DNA of 64,000 nt from Candidatus Acidiferrum sp. (lineage in GTDB: Bacteria > Chloroflexota > Dormibacteria > CF-121), in assembly GCA_035602395.1 (NCBI GenBank), contig DATNMH010000005.1:13009-77008 (forward strand), in the 5' to 3' direction. A model generated the notes under the pieces. It searched no databases, was not told where the DNA came from, and worked only from the letters and a program-made list of their open reading frames with translations. Made by a program: the position numbers and the translations under genes. Each line of letters starts with the position of its first letter. The first letter of the stretch is position 1. Below, piece after piece: positions 1,856 to 63,775 of this stretch.

Positions 1856-3073
1856 ATGGCAAGCAAGAACGGTAACGGTAGTCGACACAATGGAAAGGCA
1901 GCGGCGACGACGACCCAGAAGGCCAGTTCGCGGTCCCGGCGCAAGGTGCGGGTCGCGATCCTGGGCGTGGGCAACTGCGCCTCGTCGCTGGTCCAGGGGG
2001 TTGAGTATTACAAGGATGCGAAGCCCGGCGCCTCGATTCCAGGGCTGATGCACGTCGAGCTGGGCGGCTATCACATCCGCGACATCGAGTTCTCGGCCGC
2101 CTTCGACATCGACAAGGAAAAAGTCGGCAAGGACCTGGCCGACGCCATCTTCGCCGGCCACAACAACACGGTGAAGTTCTCCGAGGTACCCCACCTGGGG
2201 GTCAAGGTCGAACGGGGCATGACCCACGACGGGTTGGGCAAATACCTGTCCGAGATCATCACCAAAGCGCCCGGTCCGACCGCCGACATCGTCGGCATCC
2301 TCAAAGCCACCAAGACCGACGTCGTGGTGAACTACCTGCCGGTGGGCAGCGAGGAAGCGGTGAAGTGGTACGCGGAGCAGGTGCTCGAGGCCGGCTGTGC
2401 CTTCGTCAACTGCATGCCGGTGTTCCTGGCGCGCGAACCGTACTGGCGCGGACGCTTCGAGAAGCGGGGCATCCCCATCATCGGCGACGACATCAAGTCG
2501 CAGGTGGGTGCGACCATCGTCCATCGCATCCTGACGCGGCTGTTCGAGGATCGAGGCGTCAAGCTGGAGCGGACGTATCAGCTGAACTTTGGCGGCAACA
2601 CCGACTTCCTCAACATGCTGGAGCGGGAACGCCTCGTCTCCAAGAAGATCTCCAAGACGAACAGCGTCAAGTCGCAAATGAAGACCGATATCGGCGCCGA
2701 CAACATCCACATCGGCCCGTCGGATTACGTGCCCTGGCTTGGCGATCGCAAGTGGGCCTACATCCGGCTGGAGGGTCGCTCCTTTGGCGATGTGCCGCTC
2801 AACGTCGAACTCAAGCTCGAGGTCTGGGACTCGCCCAACTCGGCCGGGGTGGTGATCGACGCCATCCGCTGCTGCAAGCTCGGCCTCGACCGGAAGCTGG
2901 GCGGGGCGCTCGAAGGGCCTTCGTCATACTTCATGAAGTCGCCGCCGGCGCAGTACACGGATGGAGTTGCCCATCAATTGACCGAAGCCTTCATCGCCGA
3001 CACCAGCGTCAACGGGGAAACCGCGACCGAGGTCCAGGCAGTGTCGGCGCCCGAAGGGTCCGCCCGCCGATAA
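1856..3073 (+). CDS. ino1: myo-inositol-1-phosphate synthase (inositol-3-phosphate synthase)
   Basis: 405 aa with an NAD-binding [12 protein letters not shown] motif and prokaryotic MIPS-like sequence throughout. Confidence 0.9.
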
Positions 3074-7989: not shown

Positions 7990-8522
7990 CTCGTTTCGGT
8001 TTCCGTGGCGATCCCGCCGCGGAGGCCAAAGAGGTGCTTCTGCCAGGCGAGGTAGATCACAATCGCCACGTTGATCAACAGGATGCTGATGCGGACCGGC
8101 GTCTGGCGGTTGAGCACTTCGGAGACTTCGAACGGGATACCGATGCACCCGGCGATCACCGTGAGGTACTCGGCCCATCGCCGGCGGCGTGCCAGTCCGA
8201 TCGCTTCCGTCAGTTCCAGCATTCCGAAGAGCAGCGCGCCGATCCCGATCAGCACGACGGTTCGCGTTGAAAATTGGCCGACGGGGCGAAGCACCGTGCC
8301 CAGGATCCGTGGAATCAGCCGGCGCTCGGGGTTGACGTCGAGCTCGGCTACCCACTGGCGGACCAGCGACACCACACTGCGGCTCCGCGTCAGCAAGGCG
8401 ACGCCGAGAATGAACACCAGGCTGCCACGGATGGCGCGCTCCAGGATGATCAAGCGCACGATCGTGTCGACCGGTTGGGTTTCTCGGCCGAGCTCGCGCT
8501 TGACCTTTTGCCAGCGGGTCAC
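7986..8522 (-). CDS. DUF2127-like integral membrane protein
   Basis: 178 aa with 4 predicted TM segments. 4-nt overlap with the upstream gene. Confidence 0.55.
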   Translation of the reverse strand: MTRWQKVKRELGRETQPVDTIVRLIILERAIRGSLVFILGVALLTRSRSVVSLVRQWVAELDVNPERRLIPRILGTVLRPVGQFSTRTVVLIGIGALLFGMLELTEAIGLARRRRWAEYLTVIAGCIGIPFEVSEVLNRQTPVRISILLINVAIVIYLAWQKHLFGLRGGIATETETS

Positions 8523-9649
8523 TGCGGCAGTGCCTCGAGGAGGCGGTCGAGGTCCTCGTCGCTGTTGTAGTAATGGGGCGAGGCCCGCAAGAAGTCACTG
8601 CGCAGTGAGATGATGACGCCCGCCTCGCGCAGGCGGGTATGCAATTCGGCCGGCACCATCCGTGGATGACGAAAGGACACGATGCCGGAACGTTCGGATG
8701 GCACCGTGGGTTTCGCTACCAGCTCGTAGCCGCGACTGGGCAGCTCGTCACGCAGCCGGTCGGCGAGTCGCAGCACGACGTCTTCGACCACGGGCGCTCC
8801 GCACCGCAGCAGGAGATTGACGGCGGCTCCCATGCCCAGGATGCCCGGATAATTCGGCGCGGCCTCCTCGAAGCGGCGGGCGCCGGGCTTGAACGTGAGA
8901 TCGTAATCGACGTATTCCCGCTCGCGGACCACGCTCTCCGGTCCGATGGTCACCGGGTTCAGTCGGTCGAGCATCCGCGGTCCGACGTAGGCAAAGCCCG
9001 CACCCATGGGACCGAGCAACCACTTGTGCGCGCCGGCCGCCAGGAAATCGACGGGTGTCCGCGACAGGTCCAGCTGGAGGCCGCCGACCGCTTGCACCGC
9101 GTCGACCACGAGCATGGTGTCGCGCCCTCGAAGCGCCGTCCCCAGGGCGCCAAGGTCGGTTCGAAACCCGCTCCAGAACTGGACGGCGCTGATCGCCAGC
9201 ACGCGCGTGCGCCGATCGCAGAGCCGGACCACGGCCTTGACATCGATCCGACCTTGTTCTGGCTGGTAGAGCCGGAGCTCGACGCCCTTTCGCTTGAGTC
9301 CCATCCATGGATAGATGTTGGAGGGGAACTCGCGATGGACGCCGACGATATTGTCGCCGGCCTCCCAATCGAGGCCGGCGGCGACCAGGCCCAGACCCGC
9401 CGTTGTGTTCTTGGTAAAGGTGATCGATTCCGGACCAACGGATAGCAACTCCGCGATGCGCGTGCGCACCTGGCTGCGCAGCCGTTCCCAGTGCGCCAGG
9501 TCGAACGGCTCCTCCGTCATGCGGGCGAGGTAGACCTCCATCGTGGAGCGCACCGGCGTCGCCAGTGGTGCATTCGCCGCGTGATCGAGGTAGGCATACC
9601 GCGTGGCGATCGGATACAGCGCTCGCATCTCCTGCGGCGTGAGCGGCAT
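8519..9649 (-). CDS. class V aminotransferase (cysteine desulfurase/selenocysteine lyase-like PLP enzyme)
   Basis: 376 aa, AAT-V fold, with a PLP-lysine region (AAGAHKWLLGPMGAGFAYV). Confidence 0.8.
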   Translation of the reverse strand: MPLTPQEMRALYPIATRYAYLDHAANAPLATPVRSTMEVYLARMTEEPFDLAHWERLRSQVRTRIAELLSVGPESITFTKNTTAGLGLVAAGLDWEAGDNIVGVHREFPSNIYPWMGLKRKGVELRLYQPEQGRIDVKAVVRLCDRRTRVLAISAVQFWSGFRTDLGALGTALRGRDTMLVVDAVQAVGGLQLDLSRTPVDFLAAGAHKWLLGPMGAGFAYVGPRMLDRLNPVTIGPESVVREREYVDYDLTFKPGARRFEEAAPNYPGILGMGAAVNLLLRCGAPVVEDVVLRLADRLRDELPSRGYELVAKPTVPSERSGIVSFRHPRMVPAELHTRLREAGVIISLRSDFLRASPHYYNSDEDLDRLLEALPQ

Positions 9650-9673
9650 ACGTTGGGCACACTACACTAGGCA

Positions 9674-17264: not shown

Positions 17265-18314
17265 TCAGACGACCATGATCGAGCCCGCGTCCCCCTCCGT
17301 CAGCTGGCCGACGACGGCGCCGGTCACCCTTTTCCGCGTCAGCGCACTAAGCAAGCGCTCCACCTCGGTCTCAGGGACTGCCAGCAGCAGCCCGCCGGAG
17401 GTCTGGGCATCGCAGAGCAGGGTCTGGCGCGCCGCCGACAGGTGCGCCGGCCAGCGGACCCGCGAGGCCAGAAAGCGCTCGTTCGATCGGGTGCCGCCCG
17501 GGACTTCCCCGGCCTCTGCCAGCATCTCGGCGCCCGGAAGGAGTGGGACCGAGGCCGCCTCGATGAGCGCCGCGACCCCCGAGGCGCGCGCCATGGAATG
17601 GAGGTGCCCCAGCAGGCCGAAGCCGGTGACGTCGGTGGCGGCGTGCACGTCGACCGTCGCCATCGCGTCGGCGGCGTCGCGGTTGAGCCGGAGCATGCCC
17701 TCGATGGCCGCCGCGGCCGATTCCGGCGGCGCCACCTGATGCTTGATGGCAGTGGTGATGACGCCAGTGCCCAGCGGCTTGGTCAGCACCAGCCGGTCGC
17801 CCGGCCGGCCGCCGCGATTGCGACGCACCCGGTCGGGGTGAACGGTGCCGGTCACGGCAAGCCCGTATTTCGGTTCGTGATCGTCGATGCTGTGGCCGCC
17901 CAGGATATCGATGCCCGCCTCGCGGACCTTGTCCAGGCCGCCGCGCAGAATGTCGGCCAGCAGCGCCGGCCCCAGCTCTTTGATGGGGAAGGCGACGAGG
18001 TTGACCGCCAGCAACGGCTGCGCACCCATCGCGTAGATGTCGCTCAGCGCGTTGGCGGCCGCGATCGCCCCGAAGGTGTAGGCGTCGTCGACGATGGGCG
18101 TGAAGAAGTCGGTGGTCACGACCAGGGCAAGGTCCGGCCGCAGCCGGTAGACGGCGGCATCGTCGCCCGTCTCCTGCCCGACCAGGACGTCGGGGTTGTC
18201 AAGCCGATTCGGCAAGTGGCTCAAGACCTGAGCCAGGTCCTCAGGACCGATCTTGCAGGCTCAACCCGCTCCGTGCGACCAACTCGTCAGTCGCACTTTC
18301 TCCACCGCGCTCAT
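17265..18314 (-). CDS. selD: selenide, water dikinase (selenophosphate synthetase), selenocysteine-containing
   Basis: The ORF track calls a TTG start at 18224. The same frame continues upstream through an in-frame TGA (18261-18263) to ATG at 18312-18314, giving [56 protein letters not shown]. This matches the SelD glycine-rich loop in which E. coli Cys17 is Sec in many species. The rest of the protein is canonical SelD. Confidence 0.85.
18221..18254 (-). promoter_or_regulatory. SECIS-like stem-loop immediately 3' of the selD UGA
   Basis: mRNA nt +7 to +40 after the UGA: CAAGAU CGGUCCUGAGGACCUGGCUCAG GUCUUG. An outer 6-bp stem encloses a GGUCC-UGA-GGACC hairpin. The position is as expected for a bacterial SECIS. 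Confidence 0.4.
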
Positions 18315-18352
18315 GATTTGCACTGTACTCGACATTTGTTACCGTCACGTCA

Positions 18353-19081
18353 GTGGAGGTCACCTTCCTTGGGACCGGTTCGGCCTTCTCCCCCCACGCG
18401 TACAACGCCAGCATCCTGCTCGACCGGACCATCCTGCTGGATGCCGGTGCCCCGCTGACCGTCCACCTACCAAAGGCCGGCGTCTCGCTCGATGAGCCGA
18501 AGGCGGTAGTGCTGAGCCACTTTCATGCCGACCATACCTTCGGGCTCGCCTGGCTGATCCTGGGCCGCGTGCTGCTCCACAACCCATCATCGCCACTCAC
18601 CATCTTCGGTCCCGTCGGGACCACCGCCTACATCGAGCAGCTGCTCGACTTTGCCTGGGGCGAAAAGATGCGCCGTCTGAGCTGGGAGCGGCTGCAGCTG
18701 ACCGTGCACGAACTCGCCGGTGGGGACGCCTTCGAGGTCGACGGAAGCCGCGCCCGTGCGTTTCGCATGCAGCACGTCGATGAGCTCAATTGCCTGGGCT
18801 TCACTATCGAGCGCGACGGCGTGCGCCTCGGGTACAGCGGGGACGCAGAAATGTCAGCGGAGCTCGAGGCGCTGGTCGCGGCCTCCGATCATGTGATCGC
18901 CGAGATGACCTACCCCGACGACGAGGGTGGCGAGCTCCACCTCGGACGCAAGGAAGTCGAGGACCTGATGGAGCGGCACCCATCGACCCGCTTCATCATC
19001 ACCCACTTGAGCGCGGACGGGTCGGTCAACGGCGCCGTGATGGCTCGGGATTTTCTGACGCTGCACCTTCCTCTGCGCTGA
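18353..19081 (+). CDS. MBL-fold metallo-hydrolase (RNase Z/ElaC-like)
   Basis: GTG start. HFHADH motif (VLSHFHADHTFG). 242 aa. 3' end overlaps the convergent transglutaminase gene by 56 nt. Confidence 0.7.
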   Translation: MEVTFLGTGSAFSPHAYNASILLDRTILLDAGAPLTVHLPKAGVSLDEPKAVVLSHFHADHTFGLAWLILGRVLLHNPSSPLTIFGPVGTTAYIEQLLDFAWGEKMRRLSWERLQLTVHELAGGDAFEVDGSRARAFRMQHVDELNCLGFTIERDGVRLGYSGDAEMSAELEALVAASDHVIAEMTYPDDEGGELHLGRKEVEDLMERHPSTRFIITHLSADGSVNGAVMARDFLTLHLPLR

Positions 19082-21578
19082 CCACCCGGCCGCGACGCAG
19101 CGCGTCACGCCAGGCGCCGACCACCAGGCCGGTATAGCTGCCGCGGATGCGGTGCCACGCGTGGCGCGCTTCAGCGAGCTCATCCGCTGAAAGGCCCTCG
19201 CGGCGGAAGCTGGCCCGGGTGTAGAGGTTGGCAAGGCGCCGCACGTCTTCGTCGAGCGGTGGCACGTAGGTCGCCAGCCGACCGGCGAATTCCTGCGGGG
19301 TATCGCCGCGGTGGCGCGGGACTTTGAGCCGGTCGCCCAGGAAGAGCAGGCGGCGCCAGATGCGAGGGACGTCTTTGACCGCCAACAGCCAGCGCGCCGC
19401 CAGCAGGATGCCAATGATCAGGAGAACAAGGACCGCGGCTCCGACTAGCAGTGCCTGGCGCCAGATATTGGGGAAGGCACCGTTCGATGTCGATCCACCA
19501 GTGTCCACCACCGGCTCCGTTGGGATCGGCCGCGGACGGGCGGTCGCCTCGGTCGACGGCGGGCTCGGGGCATTGAGCAACGCACGGGTCAAAGGCCGGC
19601 TGATCGGAGCATTGACGTTGTCGGGAGTCGGCTCGAACGGGATCCAGCCGTAGCCAGGGAAGAAAACCTCGACCCAACTGTGGGCGTCGACCGCGTTGAC
19701 GATGTACTGGTGGCTCTTGTCATCGAGGATCCCCTGCCCGAAGCCGCTCATCTGGCGGCTGGGGATCCCGAGGGTGCGCAGCATGACGTTCATGGCCGTC
19801 GAGAAGTCCTGGCAGAAGCCCTTCTGGCTGGTGAAGAGGAAGTAGTCGAGCGGCCGCACGCCGGTCGGCGCCTGCGGCGTGAGCAATGTATAGGTGAAGC
19901 GTCCCTTTTCCTGGAACCAGGACTCGATCGCCCTGGCCTGGTCGTAGGGGGTGGTCGCCTTCGCAGCGTGCACGATCGATTGGGCCAGGGCGGCGATGTC
20001 CGCATCGCGACCGGTGGAGTACCCTTTGGCGCTCACGCCGCCCGCATACAGGCTGATGTATGGGGCGGTCCAGGCCGGATAGTCTGTGCCCGCGCTCTGG
20101 AGCTCGTCCACCGCCGCGTTCGGAACAGCTTCCGTGACGCTGAAGGTGTATGGCGCGCGCACCCGATTAGCGAAGTGGATCTGGTCGACGGTATCGAAGG
20201 TACTGGGGTTGACGTTGTCGCCGGTGACATTGACCAGCGCGGGAACGGAGCCTGGAAGCCCCGCTTCCGACGTCATGATGCCGCGCACTTTGCTGGGTTG
20301 GTTGACGGAAATGATCTCGCCGCTACTGAAAACGGTGGCGAGCGTCTGCTCCGGCGGAACGATCACCTGGAACGTGTCGTGCTGGATCTGGATGCGTTGC
20401 GGGTCCGACGGCAGGTCATCCCGAGGGATCGGTGCCCCGGCGGCAACCAGCGGTTGCTGGCGCACCGGAACTTCCGGGGTACTGGGAAGCGAGTACCACT
20501 GGATCCCATCCCAGCCAGCCAGGGCAATGCCGCGCCAGTACGGGTAGTAGGTCGGGGCGTCGCCGCTGACCCGCATCACGGTCTGCGGCTTCGCTTTCAG
20601 CTGCGTACCCGGCCGAACCGTTTCGCTGTAGCCGACCGATCCGATGCCCCCTCCCGGACCTGACCCGCTTCCGATGCCGAAGGGATGAAATGGATCGGCG
20701 TGCACCACACCGGGGATGAGCGCGCCACTGATGTCGCTACTGCTGAGCGGCGGCAGGATGAGGAAGGCGATGGCAAGAATGCCCACGGTCGCCTCGACGC
20801 CAACCTCGCCGAAGGTCCAGCCAGTATCGGCTGCGTGCGGCAGGCGTCGCGACCGCCAGTTTTCTTTGAGGGCGACGAAATTTAGCCGAAGCAGGACGGA
20901 AGCCGCCGCCGCCAGCCAGACGACGACAAAGAAACCCAGGCCGGGACTGGTGTCGTTGATGATCTCGACTGCCAGGATGGTGCCAGTCGGCAGGAGGGCG
21001 ACCAGCCCGTTGTGGCGGCGGAAGATCCACCAGCTCGTCCAAACGCCGGCAAGGGTGAACATCAAGATCAGACCCATCAACAGCAGGAGGTTGGTTTGCG
21101 CAGGCAGGTCGAGCGACCATTTGCGCAATGCCGGGACCGACAGCCCGGCGGTCGTTAGCGGCGAAGGCGTCAACAGCGCGAGCGACACCAGCGCCGCCAC
21201 CATCGAGGCGATGACGTAGGCGAGGCGACGAAGGCCAGCACAGACGAAGAACCAGCCGAGTACGCTCGTCAGTGCCAGCGCCGGAACCAGCCGGCCGTCG
21301 GTATCGAAGCCCGGCACCCACGCCGACCGCTCGACCGCGGCCGCGACCGCCCAACCCATCAGCAGCGCGAGCGCGAGCAACAGCCAGGTGTCGCGCACAT
21401 TGAGTGTGAGAACCACCCGACCCGCCCGAGTGACCCGCAGGGTGGCGCGGCCCTCCTCGTAATGCCCCCGAACCAAGCCGGCTGCCCAGGCAGCGCCGAG
21501 GAACGCCACGACGAGCAGCGTGATGGTTGCGGGGTTAACTTGCGGCAAGCGGTCGCTCCCCCGTGGTGTCGAGGTCAT
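19026..21578 (-). CDS. transglutaminase-like multi-pass membrane protein (TgpA-like: DUF3488 N-terminal domain plus transglutaminase core)
   Basis: 850 aa. N-terminal multi-TM region. Cys-His-Asp core (GFCQDFSTAMNVMLRTLGIPSRQMSGF..VDAHSWVEVFFPGYGWIPFEPTPD). C-terminal TM helix plus cytoplasmic tail. Confidence 0.8.
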   Translation of the reverse strand: MTSTPRGSDRLPQVNPATITLLVVAFLGAAWAAGLVRGHYEEGRATLRVTRAGRVVLTLNVRDTWLLLALALLMGWAVAAAVERSAWVPGFDTDGRLVPALALTSVLGWFFVCAGLRRLAYVIASMVAALVSLALLTPSPLTTAGLSVPALRKWSLDLPAQTNLLLLMGLILMFTLAGVWTSWWIFRRHNGLVALLPTGTILAVEIINDTSPGLGFFVVVWLAAAASVLLRLNFVALKENWRSRRLPHAADTGWTFGEVGVEATVGILAIAFLILPPLSSSDISGALIPGVVHADPFHPFGIGSGSGPGGGIGSVGYSETVRPGTQLKAKPQTVMRVSGDAPTYYPYWRGIALAGWDGIQWYSLPSTPEVPVRQQPLVAAGAPIPRDDLPSDPQRIQIQHDTFQVIVPPEQTLATVFSSGEIISVNQPSKVRGIMTSEAGLPGSVPALVNVTGDNVNPSTFDTVDQIHFANRVRAPYTFSVTEAVPNAAVDELQSAGTDYPAWTAPYISLYAGGVSAKGYSTGRDADIAALAQSIVHAAKATTPYDQARAIESWFQEKGRFTYTLLTPQAPTGVRPLDYFLFTSQKGFCQDFSTAMNVMLRTLGIPSRQMSGFGQGILDDKSHQYIVNAVDAHSWVEVFFPGYGWIPFEPTPDNVNAPISRPLTRALLNAPSPPSTEATARPRPIPTEPVVDTGGSTSNGAFPNIWRQALLVGAAVLVLLIIGILLAARWLLAVKDVPRIWRRLLFLGDRLKVPRHRGDTPQEFAGRLATYVPPLDEDVRRLANLYTRASFRREGLSADELAEARHAWHRIRGSYTGLVVGAWRDALRRGRVVSAEEGAASENPEPSRRR

Positions 21579-22734
21579 CGGCGCCGCGGACGATCCACCA
21601 GTTCAACGCCTGGCGCCAGCGGCCGGCGCTCGCCAGCGCCGGCTGGGTCCCGCCGAACCCGCGCGGATCGATATAGACGATCAGGCTCCGCTGGCCTCGC
21701 ACGCCCAGGTCCAGCAGCGCGGCCGGCCACCGTTCGTCTGCCGAGGGGGTGATCACGATCAGGCCCCCGCGGTGCCGCCATTGGTGCCGCTGCGACGTCA
21801 GTAAGGTGGCGAGCGGCACCGTGCCGTCGGCCTGGGCGAGCGTGAAGTGTTCGAAGAGCTTGTTGCGCTGCTGGTCGCCGCGCGCGGCCTCGATCACACT
21901 GAGGCGGCTGTCATTGCTCACCAGACCGATGGCGCCACCGCGCCGAAGCCCGGCGTCCGCAATCGACGCGGCCAGGCTCATCGCATATTCGAGCGTGGAC
22001 TCGGGCGCCTCCCCGGCGTGGACCGAGGCCTGCAGGTCGAGGACGATCCAGGCGTCTCCCCCCTCGCGTGTCTCGAAGCTGCGGCTCATCAGCCGGCCGA
22101 GTCGGGCGGACGACGCCCAGTGGATCCGCTTGACGCTGTCGGTCGGGACGTACTCGCGAATGGTGGTGGCATTCGGCGGAATGTCGAGCACGCGACCGCG
22201 CAGCTGCTCGTTGCCGGCCGTGCTGGGGGCCAGCGCATCGAGCGCGCCGACCGGGCGCACCACGGGGTAGACGACCACCGACCGGCTGCCGGCGACGCGC
22301 AGGGTCCGCGCGAAAAGCCCGAACGGATCGCCATAGCGCAGCTCGACCGGGCCAAAGGTAAACAGGCCCCGCTGTTTGAATTGACCCCGCGACGTCCACC
22401 GGCGCGTTCGACGCCCCTTGAGGCTGAACACCCGCCCCGGGTTGTAGCCGGGCAGGTTGGAGAAATCCGTCAGCTCGATGAGCGGCACCGGGATCCAGGA
22501 GCGGTTCTCGATCGTGAAGTGCTCTTCGAAGTGGTCACCCACCTGGTACTGCCCCTCGGGGCTGGTCCGTTCCACCAGCAGGTTATCGGCGGCCAGCCGG
22601 CTCCACAGGTAGCTCACGAGAAAAAGAAGAATGAGCGCGTAGAGCAGGCTGTAGGCGAGCCGGATCCCGGTGATGTACGCGAAAAAGAAGAGAAGGGCCA
22701 GCGCCGTAATCAGGGGAAGACGCGGCAGCCGCAT
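21535..22734 (-). CDS. DUF58 domain protein (VWA-like)
   Basis: 399 aa with N-terminal TM helices. Second member of the classical MoxR-DUF58-TGase triad. The DUF58 3' end (21535) overlaps the upstream part of the TGase ORF by 44 nt, so the TGase start at 21578 is uncertain. Confidence 0.8.
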   Translation of the reverse strand: MRLPRLPLITALALLFFFAYITGIRLAYSLLYALILLFLVSYLWSRLAADNLLVERTSPEGQYQVGDHFEEHFTIENRSWIPVPLIELTDFSNLPGYNPGRVFSLKGRRTRRWTSRGQFKQRGLFTFGPVELRYGDPFGLFARTLRVAGSRSVVVYPVVRPVGALDALAPSTAGNEQLRGRVLDIPPNATTIREYVPTDSVKRIHWASSARLGRLMSRSFETREGGDAWIVLDLQASVHAGEAPESTLEYAMSLAASIADAGLRRGGAIGLVSNDSRLSVIEAARGDQQRNKLFEHFTLAQADGTVPLATLLTSQRHQWRHRGGLIVITPSADERWPAALLDLGVRGQRSLIVYIDPRGFGGTQPALASAGRWRQALNWWIVRGADDLDTTGERPLAAS

Positions 22735-22746
22735 CCGCTTGCCCGG

Positions 22747-23733
22747 CTAGCTCGCCACCCGGCGCCCGAAGCGCGAGACCACGCTCGGCGGCGGTACCGG
22801 CTCCGTTTCCAGAATCTGGGCCAGGACTTTCGCCGACGTGAGGCCACGCAGCTCTGCGTTGGCTTTGAGGATCAGACGGTGGGCGAGCACCGGTTGCACC
22901 AGCGCCTTCACGTCATCCGGGGTGACGAAGTCACGACCCTCGAGGGCTGCCCGCGCCTGCGCCCCGCGGAAGAGGCCTAGCGACCCGCGCGAGCTGGCGC
23001 CCAGGCCGATGTCGGCGTGCGACCGGGTGCGATGCGTCACGCGAGCGATGTACTCCTTCAGCTGGTCGTCGACGTAGATCTCCTGGACCGCGCTCTGCCC
23101 ACCGAGCACCTCGTCCGCCGAAGCCACCGCCTCCAGCTGCTCGATCGGCGACCCCCGCTGAAAACGGTCGAGCACCTGCACCTCGTGCGCCACGTCGAGG
23201 TAGCCGAGATTGACGCGCATCAAGAAGCGGTCGACCTGCGCCTCGGGGAGCGGGAAGGTGCCCGCGAACTCGACCGGGTTTTGCGTTGCCAGCACCATGA
23301 AGGGCAGCGGCAGCGGGTAGGTGGTCCCGTCGACCGTCACCTGCTTCTCCTCCATCGCCTCCAGCAGCGCCGACTGCGTCTTGGGCGTGGCCCGGTTGAT
23401 CTCGTCGGCGAGCAGCACCTGGGTGAAGATCGGACCCTGGCGGAATTCGAACTGCTGCGTCGAGGGACTGTAGATGTTGACGCCGGTGACGTCGGAGGGA
23501 AGCAGGTCCGGCGTGAACTGAAGGCGCTCGAAGGAGCACCCAAGGGAGCGCGCCAGCGACTTGGCCAGCATGGTTTTTCCGACGCCGGGCACGTCTTCGA
23601 TCAGGATGTGGCCACGGCTCAGCAGCGCAATGGCGCAGAGCTCGATCTCCGCACTCTTGCCGACGAGCACCCGACCGACGTTCTCGACGATCCGGGCACC
23701 GAGGGCTTCGACCGATCCGTTCTCCATCTGCAT
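22747..23733 (-). CDS. MoxR-family AAA+ ATPase
   Basis: Walker A (EDVPGVGKT) and Walker B (LLADEINRATPKTQSALLEAMEE), typical MoxR. Confidence 0.9.
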   Translation of the reverse strand: MQMENGSVEALGARIVENVGRVLVGKSAEIELCAIALLSRGHILIEDVPGVGKTMLAKSLARSLGCSFERLQFTPDLLPSDVTGVNIYSPSTQQFEFRQGPIFTQVLLADEINRATPKTQSALLEAMEEKQVTVDGTTYPLPLPFMVLATQNPVEFAGTFPLPEAQVDRFLMRVNLGYLDVAHEVQVLDRFQRGSPIEQLEAVASADEVLGGQSAVQEIYVDDQLKEYIARVTHRTRSHADIGLGASSRGSLGLFRGAQARAALEGRDFVTPDDVKALVQPVLAHRLILKANAELRGLTSAKVLAQILETEPVPPPSVVSRFGRRVAS

Positions 23734-23788
23734 CCTTCTTACTTCCTTTTCAGTGATCCGGTTCCCGTTCCGGCTGACGTCAATGTGC

Positions 23789-24220
23789 TTATCGAACGCG
23801 ATGACTCGGCGAATCGTTACCCGACCCGGTGCGCTCGCGCCGAGCGACGCTGGCGATGACGCCGCCGATTGTGCCGCCGCTCAAGACCAGGACGTCGTCG
23901 ACGACGAGCCCGAGCGTGTCCAGGCCCGCCGAACCAATCGGGCCGATGGGGCCAACGGCGCCCGCCAGCTCTTCCACGATGATGAAGCCGACCGCGACGA
24001 TGACCCCGTTCCAGACGGCGCCGCCGGCCGGCCCGATGAAGCCGGCGAGCGTTCCCCCAGCCAGCAGCGCCGCGAACGTGAGCAAGCCCTGCGAGACGAG
24101 CTGACCCCGATGACTGCCAAAGAGCAGGGTGCCCCCGACCAGTTGAATGACCACCGCGAGCACCATGCCAAGCCCGGCGGCGAACCAATCGACCCTCCGC
24201 CCAGCCTGAGACCTCGCCAT
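23789..24220 (-). CDS. hypothetical small multi-pass membrane protein
   Basis: ATG at 24220 (MARSQAGRRVDWF...). About 4 hydrophobic helices, Gly/Ala/Val-rich. Trails the MoxR operon. The longer 239-aa ORF call overlaps the Kelch gene and was trimmed. Confidence 0.4.
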   Translation of the reverse strand: MARSQAGRRVDWFAAGLGMVLAVVIQLVGGTLLFGSHRGQLVSQGLLTFAALLAGGTLAGFIGPAGGAVWNGVIVAVGFIIVEELAGAVGPIGPIGSAGLDTLGLVVDDVLVLSGGTIGGVIASVARRERTGSGNDSPSHRVR

Positions 24221-32886: not shown

Positions 32887-33791
32887 CAGCCTCTGCCGGC
32901 GAGCAGCTCCTCCTGCGGAATCGTCCCGATCTCCAGCCCGCGCATCGCTTTGCCGAGGCTCTTGGATGCGTCGGCCAGGATGTCCGGCCGGTCGAAGTAC
33001 GTGGTCGCCGCCACGATGGCCTTGGCGCGGGCGGAAGGATTCTCGGCCTTGAAGATGCCCGAGCCGACAAAAATCCCGTCACACCCGAGCTGCATCATCA
33101 GCGCCGCGTCGGCGGGCGTCGCGATCCCACCGGCGGCGAAGTTGACGACCGGCAGCCGGCCCAGGCGGGCCGTCTCCTCGAGCAGGTCGGAAGGCGCGCC
33201 GATGCGCTTGGCTTCCACGACAAGCTCTTCGGGCCCCATGCCGTACAGGGCGCGGATGCCACCGGTCACGGCGCGCATATGGCGCACGGCCTCGACCACG
33301 TTGCCGGTGCCGGCCTCACCCTTGGTGCGGATCATGGCCGCCCCTTCGGTGATCCGGCGCAGCGCTTCGCCAAGGTCGCGGCAGCCGCAGACGAATGGGA
33401 CCTTGAAGGGATGCTTATTGATGTGGTGCTCTTCATCGGCGGGGGTCAGCACCTCGCTCTCGTCGATGTAGTCCACGCCGAGCGACTCAAGGATCTGGGC
33501 CTCGACAAAGTGCCCGATCCGGCACTTGGCCATCACCGGGATGGTGACGGCCTCGATGATGGCGGTGATCAACCCCGGGTCGCTCATCCTGGCCACGCCG
33601 CCTTCCCGTCGGATGTCAGCCGGCACGCGCTCGAGCGCCATCACGGCCACCGCGCCGGCGTCCTCGGCGATCTTGGCCTGCTCGGCGGTGACGACGTCCA
33701 TAATGACGCCGCCTTTGAGCATCTCGGCCAGCCCGGCTTTGACCTGCCAGGTGCCGCGCCGGTCGTTCAACTGGGGTGATCCCTCGGCCAC
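32883..33791 (-). CDS. pdxS: pyridoxal 5'-phosphate synthase lyase subunit
   Basis: Highly conserved PdxS sequence (GGVIMDVV..., [30 protein letters not shown]). Confidence 0.92.
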
Positions 33792-33894
33792 GAACTCATT
33801 TTACTGCGCCTTCCAGGCAATTCGGTCCCAATTCGTGGACGGCCTGTCGCGAACCCGTCCCGACTGCCCGTCGACAGCCCGGCCCGCCGATAGA

Positions 33895-34638
33895 ATGCAT
33901 CCCGCAATGCGGGCCCCCCGGCGCACCCGACGGCAGTCGGTGGTGGCCGTGGTCGTCGCGGTCGCGCTGGGCCTGCCGGCCCTACTCGGAATTGCCGTCG
34001 CCGTCGGTTTCGTCATCACGCCCTCGGTCGACGATATGCCCCGCCGGGTCGATGCCATTCTCGCTAACCATGGCGGCACGCGGGTGGCCCTCAACGACGT
34101 CCCCGACGTGTTGAGCGAGGCCTTGATCTCGATCGAAGACGAGCGCTTCTATCAGCATCGCGGCATCGACACACAAGGACTGGTCCGCGCGGTGCTCACC
34201 GACCTCTACCACCACCGGGCGCTGGAAGGCGGCAGCACCCTATCGCAGCAGCTGATCAAGGTGCTGTACATGAACAACAACGACGACGGGTGGCGCAAGC
34301 CGGAGAACCTGGTGCTCGCCCTGAAGATGGAATCAAAGTTCGACAAGCACACCATCCTGGAGAACTATTTGAACGCCGTCTACTACGGGCACGGCGCCTA
34401 TGGCATCGGGCAGGCGTCGGCGACTTATTTCCACCGGACACCGGCTCAGCTCGACCTGGCGCGCGCCTCGATGCTGGCGGGCCTGCCCCAGTCGCCCTCC
34501 TACTACGACCTCTACCGCAACCCCTGTTCCGCCCGGGCCCGCCAGTTCAACGTCCTGGCCCAAATGGTTCACGTGGGGTACATCAGGGAGGAGCAGGCCG
34601 CCACCGCCTACTCGGAGCCGATCGGCTTCCCCTGCTGA
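33895..34638 (+). CDS. monofunctional biosynthetic peptidoglycan transglycosylase (GT51, MtgA-like)
   Basis: N-terminal TM anchor, then GT51 motifs (EDERFYQHRGID, GGSTLSQQL, RKPEN..LAL.MES). An alternative leaderless start at ATG 33907 lies just downstream of a TAGAAT box. Confidence 0.75.
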   Translation: MHPAMRAPRRTRRQSVVAVVVAVALGLPALLGIAVAVGFVITPSVDDMPRRVDAILANHGGTRVALNDVPDVLSEALISIEDERFYQHRGIDTQGLVRAVLTDLYHHRALEGGSTLSQQLIKVLYMNNNDDGWRKPENLVLALKMESKFDKHTILENYLNAVYYGHGAYGIGQASATYFHRTPAQLDLARASMLAGLPQSPSYYDLYRNPCSARARQFNVLAQMVHVGYIREEQAATAYSEPIGFPC

Positions 34639-34671
34639 TCCCCTGACGGCGCCGGGGCGCATCATGAAGCC

Positions 34672-35322
34672 GTGGGGTTGGATCTCGTCCTGCTCGGGCC
34701 GCCCGGATCCGGAAAGGGTACACAGGCGGCCATGCTCTCGCAGAAGTACCGGATCCCGGCCATCTCGACCGGCGACGTCCTGCGGGCGCAGGTGGAGGCG
34801 GGACTGGGGCAGCGGGTCAAGGCCTACCTCGACCGCGGCGAGCTGGTGCCCGACAGCCTGGTGGTCGATCTCATCCGGCACCGCCTCTCGGATCCTGACA
34901 CGCAACAGGGCTTCATCCTCGACGGCTTCCCCCGGACCGTTCCCCAGGCACAGGCGCTCGACAGCATGCTGGCCGCGCTCGACCGGCCGCTGGATGCCGT
35001 CCTCTATTTGCAGGTGGGCCCGCAGGCCGTTCGGGAGCGCCTGGGCCAGCGCCACCGCGGCGACGACCAGCAGGGGGTCATCGACCACCGCCTCGACGTC
35101 TTCCTGCAGCAGACGGCGCCCCTGATCAGCTACTACCAGGCTCAAGGCAAGCTCAAGCTGATCGATGGCGCCCAGCCGCCGGAGGTGGTGGCGGCCAGCA
35201 TCGATCAGGCCATCCGGCCGCTCGCCGTGCCCTCGTTTGGCGAGGCCAGTTTTGGGCATAAACCTAACGTCTCGCAGGTTGTCCCTGACGAGAACACTAA
35301 GGAGAATGGAAGCAATGCCTGA
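34672..35322 (+). CDS. adk: adenylate kinase (short-lid type)
   Basis: GTG start. P-loop GPPGSGKGTQ. Short LID (RHRGDD) without the Zn cysteines. Confidence 0.9.
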   Translation: MGLDLVLLGPPGSGKGTQAAMLSQKYRIPAISTGDVLRAQVEAGLGQRVKAYLDRGELVPDSLVVDLIRHRLSDPDTQQGFILDGFPRTVPQAQALDSMLAALDRPLDAVLYLQVGPQAVRERLGQRHRGDDQQGVIDHRLDVFLQQTAPLISYYQAQGKLKLIDGAQPPEVVAASIDQAIRPLAVPSFGEASFGHKPNVSQVVPDENTKENGSNA

Positions 35323-58017: not shown

Positions 58018-63328
<5,311 letters not shown>

Positions 63329-63332
<4 letters not shown>

Positions 63333-63775
63333 GCGGAGGCGACCATCAACGGGATACGGGCCGTGACGTCACGGTGCAGTTTGACGTGCGCGGTGCCCGG
63401 CCCCATCGCCTTGACCGGCTGCTCGAACTCGATCTTGCGCCGGTCGAGGGTGATCCCATGTTGCTGCTTCAGCGCCGACGCAACGTCCGCGTTGGTCACG
63501 GCGCCGAACAGCTTCCCGTCCTTGCCACTTCGGAGTTTCAACACGACCTGCGCGGCTTCGAGCCGCACCGCTAACGCCCGCGCATCGGCCAACTCGCGCT
63601 CCTCGCGCTTGGTTTCGGTGGCCTTCTGGCGATCGACCTGTTCCTGGGCGCCGCGGGTCGCCTGCTGGGCCAGCTTTTGCGGGAGCAGGAAGTTGCGCGC
63701 ATAGCCGTCGGCGACGTCTTTCGTCTCGCCGGCTTTCCCGGTGCCTTTCACGTCCTGGAGTAAGACAACCTTCAT
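63329..63775 (-). CDS. rplI: 50S ribosomal protein L9
   Basis: [32 protein letters not shown] is the L9 N-domain signature. ATGA overlap with dnaB. Confidence 0.9.

Follow-up and report, generated by a model that had tools for sequence, protein, structure and literature searches.

The selD locus and its reading frame

The window analysed here is a whole stretch of 64,000 nucleotides (nt) of contig DATNMH010000005.1 (assembly GCA_035602395.1, Candidatus Acidiferrum sp.). On its minus strand it contains a gene for selenophosphate synthetase, selD, whose upstream frame is interrupted by a lone in-frame TGA at 18263-18261. On translation, this frame starts at ATG 18314-18312, crosses the TGA and ends at a stop TGA at 17267-17265, which gives 349 codons. 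A sequence-only reading of the window had carried the SelD frame through TGA 18261-18263 to ATG 18312-18314, and both codons are present at these positions. From sequence comparison, and with a probability of about 0.9, the gene is predicted to encode a full-length selenophosphate synthetase with selenocysteine (Sec), encoded by UGA at codon 18, at the catalytic residue of the N-terminal glycine-rich loop. The features of the gene and its start region are the following:

17265-18314, minus strand: full-length selD coding sequence (CDS), 349 codons including the predicted Sec18, plus the TGA stop 17267-17265; from translation, profile and structure matches
18312-18314, minus strand: start codon ATG; all relatives have ATG or GTG here or two codons downstream
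18261-18263, minus strand: putative Sec-encoding UGA, codon 18; from the alignment with E. coli Cys17 and the TGA, TGT and TGC counts across loci
18222-18224, minus strand: TTG (Leu31), a false start in open reading frame (ORF) finders, inside the hairpin 2 described below; from the ORF list
18322-18327, minus strand: conserved -10-like hexamer TACAGT, 7 nt upstream of the ATG; from the upstream sequences of relatives

The program-made ORF list shows SelD only as 17265-18224, with a TTG start and 319 amino acids (aa), and places two unrelated overlapping ORFs upstream, at 18241-18432 on the minus strand and at 18253-18495 on the plus strand; the TTG start at 18224 and the unrelated ORFs over 18241-18495 had both been pointed out by the sequence-only reading. 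The same reading had expected automated annotation to shorten the gene, and this is what the databases contain: the best 120 database proteins are all called at 314-319 aa, cover 89-91% of the query, and are short by 30-35 residues and devoid of the catalytic loop. The calls of database relatives have 319 aa (from the TTG of Leu31) or 316 aa (from a TTG at Leu34). Mis-annotation of SelD has been explicitly noted as frequent (PMC13326102).

SelD family membership and catalytic position

For family profile scoring, the TGA was replaced by Cys in the 349-residue protein. TIGR00476, the selD equivalog profile to which the sequence-only reading had pointed, gives 407.6 bits against a cutoff of 125, with protein residues 8-316 matching profile positions 1-309, and NF002098 gives 393.6 bits against a cutoff of 299 over residues 5-348. 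Because residue 8 matches position 1 of TIGR00476, the SelD profile expects residues upstream of the TGA. The N- and C-terminal AIR-synthase-like domains PF00586 and PF02769 are annotated in all the best 120 homologues, which are up to 98% identical to the window protein.

The window SelD aligns over its full length with SelD structures, and the best solved-structure match is E. coli SelD 3u0o (E=3.6e-87, residues 6-347). In this alignment SHGAG-U-ACK of the window stands opposite SHGAG-C-GCK of 3u0o, and U18, C20 and K21 correspond to Cys17, Cys19 and Lys20 of the E. coli enzyme. The E. coli N-terminal motif quoted in the sequence-only reading matches PDB 3u0o exactly, with the TGA opposite Cys17. 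Cys17 and Lys20 are essential for the activity of E. coli SelD, as established by mutagenesis. U18 is also opposite the corresponding Cys of Aquifex aeolicus SelD (chain 2yye/2zod).

Conservation of the TGA and coding evidence across relatives

Relatives were collected by a scan with one genome per species, which gave 80 loci. The closest 34 loci (L001-L034, here Dormibacterota-type) show 73-95% identity and belong to metagenome-assembled genomes, most of which bear the label Candidatus Dormibacterota or, if the record is older, Chloroflexi. Assemblies with this selD include JAXDLN01 (BP_619, 301-kb contig), DATBYU01, DATNMN01, DASYVR01 and VBHO01. Codon 18 is included in 33 of the Dormibacterota-type loci, where it is TGA in all 33 and TGT or TGC in none. 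The more distant loci that include the codon (n=46) belong to Chloroflexota, Bacillota, Nitrospirota, Armatimonadota and others, and show TGA in 23 and TGT or TGC in 23. Over all loci including the codon, TGA is found in 56/79 and TGT or TGC in 23/79.

The codons upstream of the TGA evolve as translated sequence: in the Dormibacterota set, residues 4-17 show a non-synonymous fraction of 0.05 and a synonymous codon heterozygosity of 0.28. TGA also terminates 22 of the 37 family-supported genes of the window, selD itself included; UGA thus normally acts as a stop here, which rules out that it is reassigned throughout the genome and calls for recoding at this one site.

Three records of the closest group deserve comment. 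L008 (DATNNA010000092.1, labelled Candidatus Binatus sp.) has a Dormibacterota-type selD with 87% identity and the same TGA, hairpins and upstream sequence, and L018 (CAZRMD010000011.1, labelled uncultured Actinomycetes) has one with 77% identity and the same TGA and hairpins; both contigs are probably mis-binned or mislabelled. L032 (VBEQ01000043.1), read in one frame, shows only about 50% aa identity to the window SelD over residues 4-138, and its best tblastn segment is nevertheless 83% identical, so this record probably contains a frameshift or an assembly error.

Almost all Dormibacterota-type loci have TACAGT or TAGAGT 6-7 nt ahead of the start codon, and a consensus promoter scan found no full -35/-10 site. 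Because the spacing between hexamer and start codon equals that between a -10 box and a transcription start, the selD mRNA is suggested to be leaderless. Another in-frame ATG, at 18335-18333 and seven codons upstream, was discarded as a start; it is not conserved, and stops intervene in L012, L013 and L024. The spacer between selD and a divergent gene for a metallo-beta-lactamase (MBL)-fold hydrolase (GTG 18353, plus strand) has only 38 bp (18315-18352) and contains two conserved -10-like hexamers back to back, TACAGT for selD and TACCGT on the other strand for the hydrolase, each 7 nt from its own start codon. This arrangement suggests that both genes are transcribed as leaderless mRNAs.

RNA structure downstream of the UGA

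The sequence following the UGA contains the candidate selenocysteine insertion sequence (SECIS), with these features:

18211-18260, minus strand: whole SECIS region (residues 19-35), in which synonymous change is suppressed; from synonymous heterozygosity and third-position counts
18236-18248, minus strand: hairpin 1, GGUCC-UGA-GGACC, starting 12 nt after the UGA; -5.8 kcal/mol alone, moderate covariation
18217-18235, minus strand: hairpin 2, UGGCUCA-GGUCU-UGAGCCA, apical loop at 18228-18224; from energy, covariation and the bacterial SECIS (bSECIS) criteria
18252-18256, minus strand: 5' arm of a possible lower stem, GCAAG, in the minimum-energy fold of the window; it would enclose both hairpins
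18212-18216, minus strand: 3' arm of the possible lower stem, CUUGC, in the same minimum-energy fold

In the Dormibacterota set the third-position minor-allele counts are 6.5 from nt -12 to -1, 1.4 from +3 to +50 and 12.1 from +51 to +74. Synonymous heterozygosity is 0.281 in residues 4-17, 0.123 in residues 19-35 and 0.399 in residues 36-138, and none of the 86 other 17-codon windows is below 0.339. Within this frozen region only the last two nucleotides of the hairpin 2 loop vary freely.

Four candidate structures were tested on distinct Sec-type sequences in two alignments, A1 (29 sequences) and A2 (38 sequences), with 500 shuffles. Hairpin 2 (7 bp, 5-nt loop GGUCU, loop 32 nt from the UGA, -9.7 kcal/mol) shows 92.1% of cells paired against a shuffle mean of 83.1%, a value reached by 0/500 shuffles, and 21 cells changed on both sides against 8.1 in shuffles; on three measures no shuffle out of 500 equals it. 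Its pair 33-43 occurs as four Watson-Crick types (U-A 15, G-C 14, C-G 3, A-U 1), its loop motif G37-U38 is invariant, and RNAalifold picks the helix of hairpin 2 alone. Hairpin 1 has moderate covariation support: 86.3% of cells are paired against a shuffle mean of 83.9% (reached by 2/500), five cells are changed on both sides (reached by 1/500), and pair 16-28 occurs as GC 30, AU 4 and GU 1; the fifth pair is broken in 14/38 sequences. It is probably an accessory hairpin, a spacer or helper. The lower stem GCAAG/CUUGC closes both hairpins in the minimum-energy fold of the window, a Y-shaped structure of -21.4 kcal/mol compared with -17.6 for the tandem fold, and is 85.5% paired, with covariation no better than in shuffles.

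A central alternative, GGACCUG-GCU-CAGGUCU (18240-18224; columns 24-30 with 34-40), competes with both hairpins and was rejected for the window, where it is far less stable (-9.0 vs -17.6 kcal/mol). Its support in the clade of the window is weak: it is 87.2% paired against 85.9% in shuffles (12/500), with three cells changed on both sides (91/500). The selD genes of Dehalococcoidia and Nitrospirae, by contrast, fold preferentially in this way. The Sec-type selD genes of L053 and L067 (Dehalococcoidia) and L054 (Nitrospirae) do not have the tandem hairpins in the 60 nt after the TGA. All three show instead one longer central hairpin with a G-U or G-G loop, GAGGACCUC-GUC-GAGGUCCU in L053 and L067 and GGACC-UGGUCCA-GGUCC in L054. 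In these three loci the SECIS is remodelled within one gene family while the peptide stays similar.

As a negative control, the same 54 nt of Cys-type selD genes were folded; one of the 24 Cys rows is a spurious motif match. Cys-type genes lack both hairpins: their folding against shuffles gives a mean z of -0.06, compared with -2.02 for Sec-type genes, and they keep 1.7 of 4 pairs of hairpin 1 and 3.0 of 7 of hairpin 2, compared with 3.8 and 6.8 in Sec-type genes. One Cys-type gene, that of L072 (JANPEZ010000166.1, Actinomycetes, about position 3031), has TGC in a motif like that of the Sec-type genes, SFSHGAG-C-ACKLGP. Its hairpins are lost, with 2/4 and 3/7 pairs kept, and the locus looks like a conversion of Sec to Cys followed by decay of the SECIS.

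Proposed mechanism and alternative explanations for the TGA

Translation would start at ATG 18314, probably on a leaderless mRNA. At UGA 18263-18261, SelB with GTP and Sec-tRNA(Sec) would be recruited by an RNA element located in the ~50 nt of CDS that follow, and selenocysteine would be inserted in place of termination. The recruiting element would consist of hairpins 1 and 2 in tandem, with a short lower stem possibly closing them; of the two hairpins, the distal one (18235-18217, loop GGUCU) is most likely the SelB site and the proximal one (18248-18236) probably a spacer or helper. The predicted enzyme would use selenide and ATP to produce selenophosphate for Sec synthesis, its own included, and possibly for other selenium uses. 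We infer SelB dependence, the identity of the bound hairpin and leaderless initiation, and the genes selA, selB and selC are presumably located elsewhere in the genome, as the sequence-only reading had expected of selA, selB and tRNA-Sec.

Several negative results weigh against this interpretation. ARAGORN found no tRNA genes in the 64-kb window; neither selA nor selB is among the 40 likely window genes scanned against NCBIfam or Pfam; six-frame tblastn searches with E. coli SelA and SelB gave no match in the window or in the 80 related loci with their +/-3 kb flanks; and a scan of the selD flanks in 57 related loci gave no tRNA-Sec. Two scans of the window for read-through TGA codons yielded no second selenoprotein, only adjacent same-frame genes, and because their filters missed selD itself they are insensitive to short N-terminal extensions. 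Rfam gave no match in the window at the gathering threshold, and a permissive scan of 18100-18400 gave only chance-level hits (E above 3) to unrelated families; since bacterial SECIS elements are gene-specific, the absent Rfam match is no argument against a SECIS.

The absence of the Sec machinery from the sequence searched would fit with a UGA that is read through without SelB or Sec, for instance by a near-cognate tRNA inserting Cys or Trp and stimulated by the downstream structure. We know of no bacterial precedent for read-through of this kind, and hairpin 2 has an apical loop of the GGU type at a spacing that fits the bacterial SECIS consensus. Structure-stimulated non-Sec read-through does occur in selenophosphate synthetase genes of Hymenoptera (PMC4561486); in the available part of a marker table of genomes, SelA and tRNA-Sec accompany Sec-type SelD in 11/11 cases (PMC4561486). 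Read-through without Sec is very improbable. A genuine stop at the TGA, with a 17-residue upstream peptide or nothing before it and a 319-aa SelD starting at TTG 18224, is less probable again: all the best 120 database entries are called in that way and more genes of the window stop at TGA than at any other codon, but the shortened protein would be deprived of the loop bearing the equivalents of the two essential residues Cys17 and Lys20, the match to the SelD profile starts at residue 8, ahead of the TGA, the codons before the TGA vary at synonymous sites with their amino acids conserved, Cys homologues read straight through the same region, and the TTG itself is inside a conserved hairpin. 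An assembly or sequencing error turning TGC or TGT into TGA, which the sequence-only reading had named as one way in which it could be wrong, or a pseudogene, is favoured by no more than the general expectation that a stop inside a frame of metagenome-derived sequence is often an error. The same TGA recurs in assemblies and studies independent of each other, in 33/33 Dormibacterota-type and 23 more distant loci; purifying selection acts on both sides of it, and a conserved RNA structure accompanies TGA and not TGT or TGC. Error and pseudogene are ruled out, at a probability next to nil, because the TGA is shared across independent loci and other homologues have TGT or TGC. A selenoprotein SelD with its true N-terminus upstream of the TGA, as the sequence-only reading had claimed, is supported by the family profiles, the Cys17 alignment, the TGA throughout the lineage and the coding-type substitutions.

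Which hairpin would bind SelB

The bSECIS consensus has 3-9 nt in the apical loop, with G in its first two positions, 4-16 bp in the upper stem, a UGA-to-loop distance of 16-37 nt and a minimum free energy of -7.5 kcal/mol or lower (PMC13188914). Hairpin 2 falls within every one of these limits (5-nt loop, 7 bp, G at positions 1 and 2, 32 nt, -9.7 kcal/mol). Hairpin 1 falls within those of loop (3 nt, UGA), stem (5 bp), G (position 2 only) and distance (17 nt) and outside that of energy (-5.8 kcal/mol), and in most Chloroflexota relatives it has no G in the first two loop positions. On balance hairpin 2 is favoured over hairpin 1, roughly two to one, as the putative SelB-binding SECIS.

The UGA could still encode Sec with SelB bound to hairpin 1 (18248-18236) and hairpin 2 acting as a helper or in another role. 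Hairpin 1 starts 12 nt and has its loop 17 nt from the UGA, which we take to be the position of the E. coli fdhF hairpin. The SECIS sequence listed in BSepDB for its example Sec-SelD (Acetomicrobium) contains the equivalent of hairpin 1, locus L050 retains hairpin 1 and not hairpin 2, and hairpin 1 shows some covariation. Also to be set against hairpin 2, much of its covariation separates two clades and overlaps a Ser/Arg change, and the shuffles ignore relatedness, so the covariation may reflect few independent events. However, hairpin 1 alone does not reach the energy limit of -7.5 kcal/mol, its fifth pair is often broken, and in hairpin 2 the loop motif G37-U38 is invariant and the covariation much stronger; binding of SelB to hairpin 1 is thus unlikely, though a serious contender.

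The sequence-only reading had seen a stem-loop positioned like a bacterial SECIS at 18221-18254, beginning 7 nt after the UGA; this single long stem-loop would pair AAGAUC (18254-18249) with GGUCUU (18228-18223) and enclose hairpin 1. The SECIS region does lie in the interval that it named, but the pairing proposed shows no compensatory changes and is not the minimum-energy fold. The long stem can fold in the window sequence itself (-11.6 kcal/mol), but hairpin 2 cannot form together with it, and both the tandem and the Y-shaped fold are more stable. Tested one pair longer (columns 9-15 with 36-42 of A1, that is 18255-18249 with 18228-18222), it is 77.3% paired against 76.9% in shuffles (171/500), with no cell changed on both sides, and its pair 11-40 is broken in 24/29 sequences. 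A long stem as the SECIS is very improbable. Tentatively, and with rather low confidence, the favoured hairpin 2 might be part of a three-helix junction as the Sec-insertion signal, formed by the lower stem GCAAG/CUUGC, hairpin 1 as spacer and hairpin 2 with its GGU loop, in place of the one simple stem-loop that the canonical bacterial model has. If this is true, the folding of hairpin 1 would place a SelB site that is 32 nt off at the proper distance from the ribosome.

Comparison with known systems

The E. coli fdhF SECIS, the canonical bacterial one, has a GGUC loop about 18 nt from the UGA. The window element is like it in being a stem-loop within the CDS, downstream of the UGA, with a G-U apical loop (GGUCU here). 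It differs in the distance from UGA to loop (32 nt for hairpin 2), in the absence of a bulged U and in a further hairpin that fills the space between. E. coli SelD (3u0o) is of the Cys type (TGC/TGT) and has no SECIS, whereas the window gene is of the Sec type and has hairpins.

SelD is the second most widespread selenoprotein family of prokaryotes (PMC13188914), and Sec is present at the same position in 19% of the SelD genes of reference prokaryotic genomes (PMC4561486). The known Sec-containing SelD proteins, such as those of Haemophilus influenzae, Clostridium, Geobacter and Aquifex aeolicus, belong to the same family, TIGR00476, with Sec at the same position of the glycine-rich loop, and they share with the window gene the in-frame UGA followed by a SECIS inside the CDS and the routine mis-annotation as a shortened protein (PMC4561486, PMC13326102, PMC13188914). 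Unlike them, the window selD belongs to a Dormibacterota lineage and is not clustered with selA or selB. In the Sec-containing SelD of Clostridiales, as described by Mariotti et al. 2015, stem 2 is located downstream of stem 1 and not nested, and stem 2 alone fits the bSECIS model (PMC4561486, Suppl. S6). By this description, the tandem arrangement of the window is that of the Clostridiales-type SelD bSECIS (PMC4561486); the difference is that a short lower stem may close the window hairpins into a three-way junction.

Other genes in the window

A class-V aminotransferase gene (PF00266, 177.5 bits) is located at 8519-9661 on the minus strand, at a distance of 8.6 kb from selD; cysteine desulfurases and selenocysteine lyases belong to the same superfamily. 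On the plus strand, an ORF for a monofunctional peptidoglycan glycosyltransferase occupies 33472-34638 and has GFPC-TGA at its end, with adenylate kinase (34639-35322) after it in frame. The Cys next to the TGA at 34636 suggested a possible C-U motif; since the adk profile starts 15 codons downstream, two adjacent genes are the simplest explanation.

Beside the MBL-fold gene adjoining selD, a minus-strand cluster (19026-23880) contains a MoxR-like AAA ATPase (22747-23880), a DUF58 protein (21535-22746) and an 850-aa membrane transglutaminase with DUF4129 (19026-21578). The DnaB replicative helicase (60675-63368, minus strand, about 885-897 aa; NF005852, 1211 bits) contains an intein, with N-terminal splicing-region and intein-containing-protein matches around residues 403-842.

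Significance

Sec-containing SelD is already textbook knowledge, and the window case is not mechanistically new; the picture of how selenoproteins are made is unchanged. The full-length frame corrects a systematic annotation error, and functional or structural inference from the shortened SelD entries would be wrong. The gene also offers a tandem-hairpin SECIS that is well sampled, and the Cys-type genes form a matched negative control for it. No literature linking Dormibacterota with selenocysteine, selenoproteins or selenium metabolism was found in the searchable library, and this selD is a marker for the use of selenocysteine in soil and desert bacteria that have not been cultured and are known from metagenomes alone. 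It points to selA, selB and selC and to further selenoproteins in Dormibacterota genomes, and it predicts that these bacteria would decode UGA as selenocysteine and depend on selenium. With rather low probability, SelD may also be the main or only selenoprotein that keeps the Sec trait in this aerobic soil lineage.

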